The notes beneath the pieces were generated by a model. The model made no database searches. It was not told the origin of the DNA and was given only the letters and a program-made list of their open reading frames with translations. Both the position numbers and the translations under genes were made by a program. A stretch of 64,000 nucleotides of DNA, taken from the NCBI RefSeq assembly GCF_050920415.1, contig NZ_CP169309.1; one strand, given 5' to 3'. Numbering within the stretch: the stretch's first letter is position 1; every line of letters starts with the position of its first letter. This document shows, in pieces, positions 13,974 to 13,981 of this stretch. Source of the DNA: Escherichia coli. Its GTDB lineage: Bacteria > Pseudomonadota > Gammaproteobacteria > Enterobacterales > Enterobacteriaceae.

Positions 13974-13981
13974 TTACGGGG

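Follow-up and report, generated by a model that had tools for sequence, protein, structure and literature searches.

Sites between conserved core genes of E. coli are reportedly used as hotspots of integration. The segment between yhhJ and nikR is similar to such hotspots, with conserved core flanks, unrelated alternative cargos and an empty state. In contrast to them, it has no integrase, tRNA or attachment repeat, and its boundaries are two stop codons. The same gene pair flanks locus 9 of the 11 Rhs positions of E. coli (Table 3 of Jackson et al. 2009, BMC Genomics 10:584; PMC2935791), and Rhs presence or absence across strains was recorded there. The Rhs element at locus 9 was inferred to have arisen late, in the K12/HS/ATCC8739 lineage, and to be absent elsewhere (Jackson 2009, PMC2935791). 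A further comparison is with REP spacers between convergent genes; according to a recent preprint (Harris et al. 2026, bioRxiv 10.64898/2026.03.23.713779), REPs can serve as partial terminators and stabilisers.

Here we describe the junction of yhhJ and nikR in a stretch of 64,000 nucleotides of E. coli DNA (the window), where the two genes are separated by only 8 nt. This junction is very probably an allele without cargo at a slot already known to be hypervariable, whose flanking core genes are conserved and convergent.

The junction and the four states of the slot

The gene yhhJ encodes an ABC transporter permease, occupies 12849..13973 on the plus strand, and is the last gene of a yhiI-rbbA-yhhJ run; its stop codon, TAA, lies at 13971-13973. 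The gene nikR encodes the nickel-responsive repressor (WP_001190062.1) and occupies 13982..14383 on the minus strand, with a TAA stop codon (TTA on the plus strand) at 13982-13984. The spacer between the two stop codons (13974..13981) is the octamer TTACGGGG, and the window reads ...ACAATGGCG TAA TTACGGGG TTA ATCTTCCTTCGG... at this point. The translated plus-strand frame ends in ...FRKTIGTMA* and is YhhJ, and the minus-strand frame ends in ...CLPKED* and is NikR. The window matches E. coli MFDS1022581 (NZ_CP169399.1) with 100% identity, its base 1 being base 289822 of that record, and the PGAP annotation of the record places both genes at the same coordinates with the same gap. The first-pass annotation had described the two genes as convergent with stops 8 nt apart, and the sequence, both translations and the PGAP annotation agree with it. 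The 8-nt gap is also annotated in other complete genomes, such as 536, Rb-3 and 2013C-4282, and therefore is not an assembly artefact.

On the left, yhhJ is preceded by yhiI and rbbA (9050..12849), which are likewise on the plus strand and whose starts and stops overlap. These overlapping gene ends suggest that yhiI-rbbA-yhhJ is one operon, and yhiI and rbbA are the likely source of transcription reaching the junction from this side. Transcription from the right comes from nikABCDE (14388..19303, minus strand), upstream of nikR. The gap between nikE and nikR (window 14383-14388) shows a 1-nt indel polymorphism, being 4 nt in MFDS1022581, 2013C-4282 and TB06052 and 5 nt in K-12, 536, O157 and W224N. 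The window opens with the 3' part of an IS621 (IS110-family) transposase gene (1-272), which lies upstream of pitA.

The content of the slot was surveyed in 5,426 complete E. coli genomes with queries of 180-241 bases that span the junction; a hit covering at least 80% of a query requires both sides to be contiguous. The yhhJ and nikR region was matched in 5,425 of the 5,426 genomes. Four states of the nikR side together account for 5,417 of these 5,425. The most frequent, in 2,126 genomes, is the K-12-type spacer upstream of rhsB (RhsB-type). In 1,635 genomes, nikR is joined to the spacer of a GntR-family regulator that heads a 7-gene PTS/aldolase sugar island, which comprises this regulator, PTS IIA, IIB and IIC, an FGGY kinase, an HPr-like protein and a class II aldolase. 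The hicAB toxin-antitoxin module alone, with hicB followed by a 108-nt tail, is found in 1,491 genomes. The empty junction is found in 165 genomes (3%), among them the uropathogenic strain 536. On the yhhJ side, hicA directly follows yhhJ in at least 2,074 genomes, a REP-type spacer follows it in 2,642, and 165 are empty; the approximately 540 genomes outside these counts probably have divergent forms of hicA or the REP that miss the 80% coverage cut.

The PTS island occurs together with hicAB in O157:H7 and TB06052 and without it in W224N, and hicAB occurs alone in CUVET20-PYO4. Pairwise BLAST comparisons showed that the cargos have no common sequence except the yhhJ-proximal spacer or the hicAB module. 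The variable segments of W224N and K-12 share the first ~88 nt after yhhJ and nothing else, and a remnant of the PTS island in K-12 was rejected by the same comparison. The first 715 nt of the 823-nt hicAB-only segment are shared with the hicAB and PTS segment of O157, and in O157 a 767-nt hicAB module replaces the 114-nt REP spacer of W224N before the same PTS island. Whichever state is present, homology to the window ends 0-4 nt from both stop codons. The segment thus has conserved core flanks and holds at least two unrelated cargos, as well as an empty state, within the same boundaries. Judged by these comparisons, the slot is a variable locus of four states and not an Rhs attachment site. 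The earlier picture of an Rhs element that is either present or absent is right in that RhsB is missing here, but it is too narrow, since the PTS island and hicAB also occupy the slot.

A second variable slot lies 6 kb away, at the boundary of acpT and yhhT (window 20001-20056). The window and K-12 have yhhT at this boundary. In O157:H7 (locus L006) and TB06052 (locus L008), at 20026-29022, a fatty-acid/polyketide-like cluster adjoins acpT instead, with genes for ketoacyl-ACP synthases, FabG2, a dehydratase, an MMPL transporter, a LolA-like protein and a glycosyltransferase.

Relation to RhsB and to REP-bearing spacers

The gene order in K-12 (strain RR1) is yhhJ, yhhI (an ISEc1-family transposase of the H-repeat), a HEAT-repeat pseudogene, yhhH, rhsB and nikR. 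The position given in the first-pass annotation for RhsB and its H-repeat ORFs, between nikR and yhhJ in K-12, is confirmed by this gene order and by the catalogued position of locus 9 (PMC2935791). The 8-nt junction is not shared by K-12, where 6,689 nt separate the yhhJ stop from the nikR stop. Unlike the K-12 locus, in which the element lies in a REP-bearing spacer, the window has no Rhs sequence; no rhs gene is annotated anywhere in its 64 kb, and only the 8 nt lie between the yhhJ and nikR stops.

The junction was aligned with K-12 and other E. coli genomes, as the first-pass annotation had proposed for locating the insertion point. This alignment placed the H-repeat against a REP-type spacer of ~88 nt, and not against the 8 nt of the window. 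The spacer is proximal to yhhJ in K-12, is common to the PTS-island strain W224N, and is missing from the window. The K-12 break lies inside a truncated REP (GGCCGGATAAGGCGT | TTATGAACTGACCCCC...), and the end of the H-repeat starts there. At its other end, next to nikR, the K-12 segment carries a spacer of ~200 nt that is unique to it, and nikR ends in TGA; neither feature is present in the window. The nikR stop is TAA in the empty and PTS states and TGA in K-12 and the hicAB-only state. ATAC... follows the yhhJ stop in K-12 and ...AGAC precedes the nikR stop, as opposed to TTAC|GGGG in the empty allele. A split copy of TTACGGGG around the K-12 element was not found in the comparison of the K-12 junctions, and neither was a target-site duplication. 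The K-12 flanks of the element are not contiguous in the empty allele, with the REP spacer, the ~200-nt spacer and the TGA stop all missing from the window. Since RhsB and the H-repeat adjoin a REP-type spacer that the window lacks, the 8 nt are, on this alignment, not the literal pre-insertion site of the K-12 RhsB. By the same reading of the junctions, RhsB and the H-repeat lie within the REP-bearing spacer or replaced part of it. The description of the window as an unoccupied Rhs site therefore holds for the map position and fails at the level of the sequence.

The surroundings of the slot in related species were obtained by one scan of species-representative genomes with a YhhJ query, followed by tblastn of the loci. 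The Escherichia loci returned were from E. whittamii, Escherichia sp. E1V33 and two divergent genomes labelled E. coli, a thin outgroup series within the genus in which E. albertii, E. fergusonii, E. marmotae and E. ruysiae were not represented. The genes yhhJ and nikR adjoin each other convergently, 15-103 nt apart, in 12 Citrobacter loci and in Salmonella enterica subsp. diarizonae, and two more loci of C. amalonaticus have spacers of 93 nt and 471 nt. The 471-nt spacer, in strain AUH_CA_2023_1 (locus L037, 11126-11596), consists of approximately five tandem REP-pair units, a local expansion of the array. The Citrobacter and Salmonella spacers consist almost wholly of REP units, and in two Citrobacter species the spacer is independently short, at 15-17 nt, and lacks a REP. 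The PTS island occupies the slot in C. amalonaticus S646 and E. whittamii. Escherichia sp. E1V33 has hicAB and at least the yhhJ-proximal part of the PTS island, its locus ending before nikR. In species of the C. freundii complex and in Salmonella diarizonae (loci L017-L026, L040 and L043), nikR adjoins yhhJ with no NikE homologue within the fetched flank, and these seem to keep an orphan nikR without an adjacent nikABCDE operon. In C. amalonaticus and Escherichia, nikE adjoins nikR.

The adjacency of yhhJ and nikR in Citrobacter and Salmonella indicates that their direct convergence is ancestral. As in the REP spacers between convergent genes treated in the preprint (bioRxiv 10.64898/2026.03.23.713779), the spacer next to yhhJ consists of REP sequence in K-12, W224N and E. 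whittamii, in Salmonella diarizonae and in most Citrobacter. The distance from the yhhJ stop to the start of the REP is 7-8 nt in Citrobacter (TAA acattattgccggat...) as well as in the REP-type spacers of E. coli and E. whittamii (TAA ttacagttgcccgat..., TAA ataaagttgcccgat...), and this common offset suggests that in Escherichia the ancestral spacer carried a REP. No REP element (a palindromic unit of the GCCGGATG... type) is present in the 8 nt of the window. Unlike the REP-bearing spacers, the window has lost the REP or never had one, and any stabilising or terminating role of a REP would be absent from it.

The boundary bases of the empty allele are TTAC on the left and GG[G/T]G on the right. 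Its octamer starts with the first 4 nt of the REP-type spacer (TTAC), and its right half (GGGG, GGGC or GAAG) loosely matches the end of the PTS state before nikR (GGTG or GGCG). By its boundary bases and its nikR haplotype, the empty allele is nearest to the PTS-island/REP-spacer state and not to the RhsB state.

Transcription across the junction

Overlapping convergent transcripts are limited by the action of Rho on untranslated antisense RNA and by head-on collisions of polymerases. Without a spacer, each of the two transcripts at the junction would run into the antisense strand of the other gene, and it is plausible from the arrangement of the genes that the yhhJ and nikR transcripts read into each other. 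This read-through would be ended by Rho, by collisions or by both, as is generally the case at other tight junctions of E. coli. Head-on polymerase collisions at convergent E. coli genes are described in a preprint (bioRxiv 10.1101/2022.10.23.513370), and according to this work and PMC4731013, collisions and antisense transcription affect such genes.

A promoter and terminator scan of 12800-15200 found no terminator-like site on the two strands closer than ~190 nt to the junction. The first candidate met, inside nikR (14175-14189), is a weak 5-bp stem, and the number of candidates in the region is not above that in shuffled sequences. The RNA fold across the junction is not exceptional on either strand (z-scores of +0.59 and -0.36 against shuffles). 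The sole inverted repeat that bridges the junction is 7 nt long (AGGAAGA/TCTTCCT), with arms 32 nt apart, and a bidirectional intrinsic terminator, that is, a G+C-rich hairpin with A- and T-tracts, was not found there. The junction has no match to an Rfam family at the gathering threshold, applied to the whole window. A hidden element at the junction was rejected on the combined results for Rfam, the promoter and terminator scan and the RNA folds, and on the finding of only trivial 7-nt inverted repeats. The sole Rfam match in the window is RyhB (RF00057, 83 bits), at 49092-49156 on the plus strand between yhhY and yhhX.

The loss of a terminator from the empty allele was also rejected as an explanation, as no canonical intrinsic terminator was found beside yhhJ and nikR in K-12 (both sides) or in W224N (where the nikR side was scanned). 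In the hicAB-only allele alone, hicB is followed by a 16-bp palindrome and a T-run. Short convergent spacing is common in the window, in which four of the ten convergent gene pairs are 8 nt or less apart, and three of the other nine pairs are tighter than yhhJ and nikR. These are yhhS/dcrB (22454-22458), with a 3-nt gap that is the same in K-12; yhhM/yhhL (28172-28175), with a 2-nt gap that is the same in W224N; and ugpQ/yhhA (46098-46111), with a 14-nt overlap. The remark that the junction leaves no room for a terminator is accurate in that no hairpin fits in or across the 8 nt, but this does not set the junction apart from these other pairs or from the scanned flanks of K-12 and W224N.

Age and origin of the empty allele

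The 165 empty genomes include the uropathogenic strain 536 (NC_008253), A0 34/86 and BH100. In the seven examined besides the window, the spacer is always 8 nt long and its sequence varies. The octamer TTACGGGG is shared by the window and a group of three identical junctions (536, Rb-3 and FDAARGOS_536), TTACGGGC is found in 2013C-4282, RMDEC465 and Z0117EC0005, and TTACGAAG is found in SCPM-O-B-8794, a genome labelled E. coli that belongs to a divergent lineage and shares 91-95% identity in its flanks with the other empty genomes. The junction of 536 matches that of the window in its length, its TTACG start and its octamer. In contrast to this match, the yhhJ end of the window is 96.5% and its nikR-nikE segment 93.8% identical to that of 536, and the yhhJ stop is TAA in the window and TGA in 536. 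Among the empty genomes, the flanks differ by up to 6-8%, fall into at least three haplotypes and have mosaic SNP patterns. From this flank divergence, the number of haplotypes and the octamer variants, we infer that the empty allele is old or widely recombined and not a recent deletion in MFDS1022581. The B2 empty genome FDAARGOS_536 and the B2 PTS-island strain W224N have no mismatch in 400 nt of the nikR end, and therefore a 6-kb indel separates otherwise sister haplotypes. As read from these two genomes, the identity fits a recent indel in the B2 background, in either direction.

The window strain itself was rejected as a divergent outlier. Its sequence in this region is 94-97% identical to all other E. 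coli compared, and K-12, O157, W224N and TB06052 differ among themselves by 2-6% there, the locus being simply polymorphic. Elsewhere in the window, the identity of zntA (24974-26473) to K-12 and W224N is no more than 91-93% across 1.5 kb, against 95-99% for its neighbours, which suggests a divergent imported allele. Between tusA and zntA lies a 309-nt ORF annotated as a hypothetical protein (24434-24742), at a place where K-12 has ~100 nt. Tiles of 500 nt at 23974-24474 align partly to K-12 and W224N, and this looks like a small strain-variable insertion.

The 8 nt could be a pristine attachment site, never occupied, which RhsB entered in the K-12 lineage. The identity of the genes that bound RhsB in K-12, the late origin inferred for locus 9 (PMC2935791), the ancestral adjacency of yhhJ and nikR in Citrobacter and Salmonella and the age of the empty allele all agree with this reading. 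It is nevertheless unlikely, as K-12 retains the REP-type spacer with the H-repeat abutting a truncated REP, has its own stop codon and spacer on the nikR side, and shows neither a split octamer nor a duplicated target, and as the REPs of the outgroups lie at the same position as in the K-12 and W224N spacers. The alternative direction, in which the 8 nt are the primitive state, has to be set against an old reduction of the REP spacer, with or without an island, which we consider somewhat the better supported of the two. If the 8 nt are a reduced REP spacer, the 15-17-nt spacers of the two Citrobacter species would be a parallel case. The sequence comparable for this direction, deletion as against a slot never filled, amounts to only 4 nt on each side.

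A recent, strain-specific deletion of RhsB or another cargo would agree with the finding that only one of the 5,426 genomes, the source strain itself, matches the 2-kb region at 99% or more, and the B2 pair demonstrates that indels occur on a common background. Such a deletion is very improbable for a junction that is common to 165 genomes on several haplotypes, whose octamer has itself gained substitutions and which carries no Rhs, hicAB, PTS or REP remnant. We give equally little credence to the tight junction as a selected regulatory arrangement, in which convergent read-through would couple nikR to the yhiI-rbbA-yhhJ operon by antisense or collision interference. The age of the allele and its constant 8 nt on several backgrounds agree with such selection, and collision and antisense effects are known for convergent E. 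coli genes from the two sources cited above. However, 97% of genomes have 0.8-6.7 kb between the two genes with no sign of consequence, equally tight junctions are frequent between unrelated genes of the window, and the junction has no specific structure or motif. Slightly more doubtful still is the fuller form of this proposal, that the 8-nt allele is ancient, crosses lineages and persists through a regulatory read-through coupling of nikR with rbbA-yhhJ that the cargo alleles abolish.

In the reading that we prefer, a cargo-free allele of a hypervariable slot, the segment between yhhJ and nikR holds one of three unrelated cargos or nothing. The cargos are RhsB with the H-repeat/ISEc1 (K-12), the PTS/aldolase/GntR island with or without hicAB, and hicAB alone. 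Homologous recombination in the flanking genes probably moves the alleles from one lineage to another. The empty allele would be old and most likely derived, through reduction of an ancestral REP-containing spacer to 4+4 nt, and not a virgin target of RhsB.

The presence/absence polymorphism at yhhJ-nikR is ordinary and already documented. It matters little in itself, as Rhs elements have long been known to be accessory, nikR/yhhJ is a catalogued, strain-variable Rhs locus, and the reference strain 536 already displays the same empty junction. B2 strains that share a nikR haplotype and have either the empty state or the PTS island could offer a natural test of the relation between convergent spacing and termination, and nothing suggests that this comparison would have a surprising outcome. 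The modest gain is descriptive: the slot has four mutually exclusive states with defined frequencies, the two stop codons delimit its variable segment, and the empty state appears to be old and not the literal target of RhsB.
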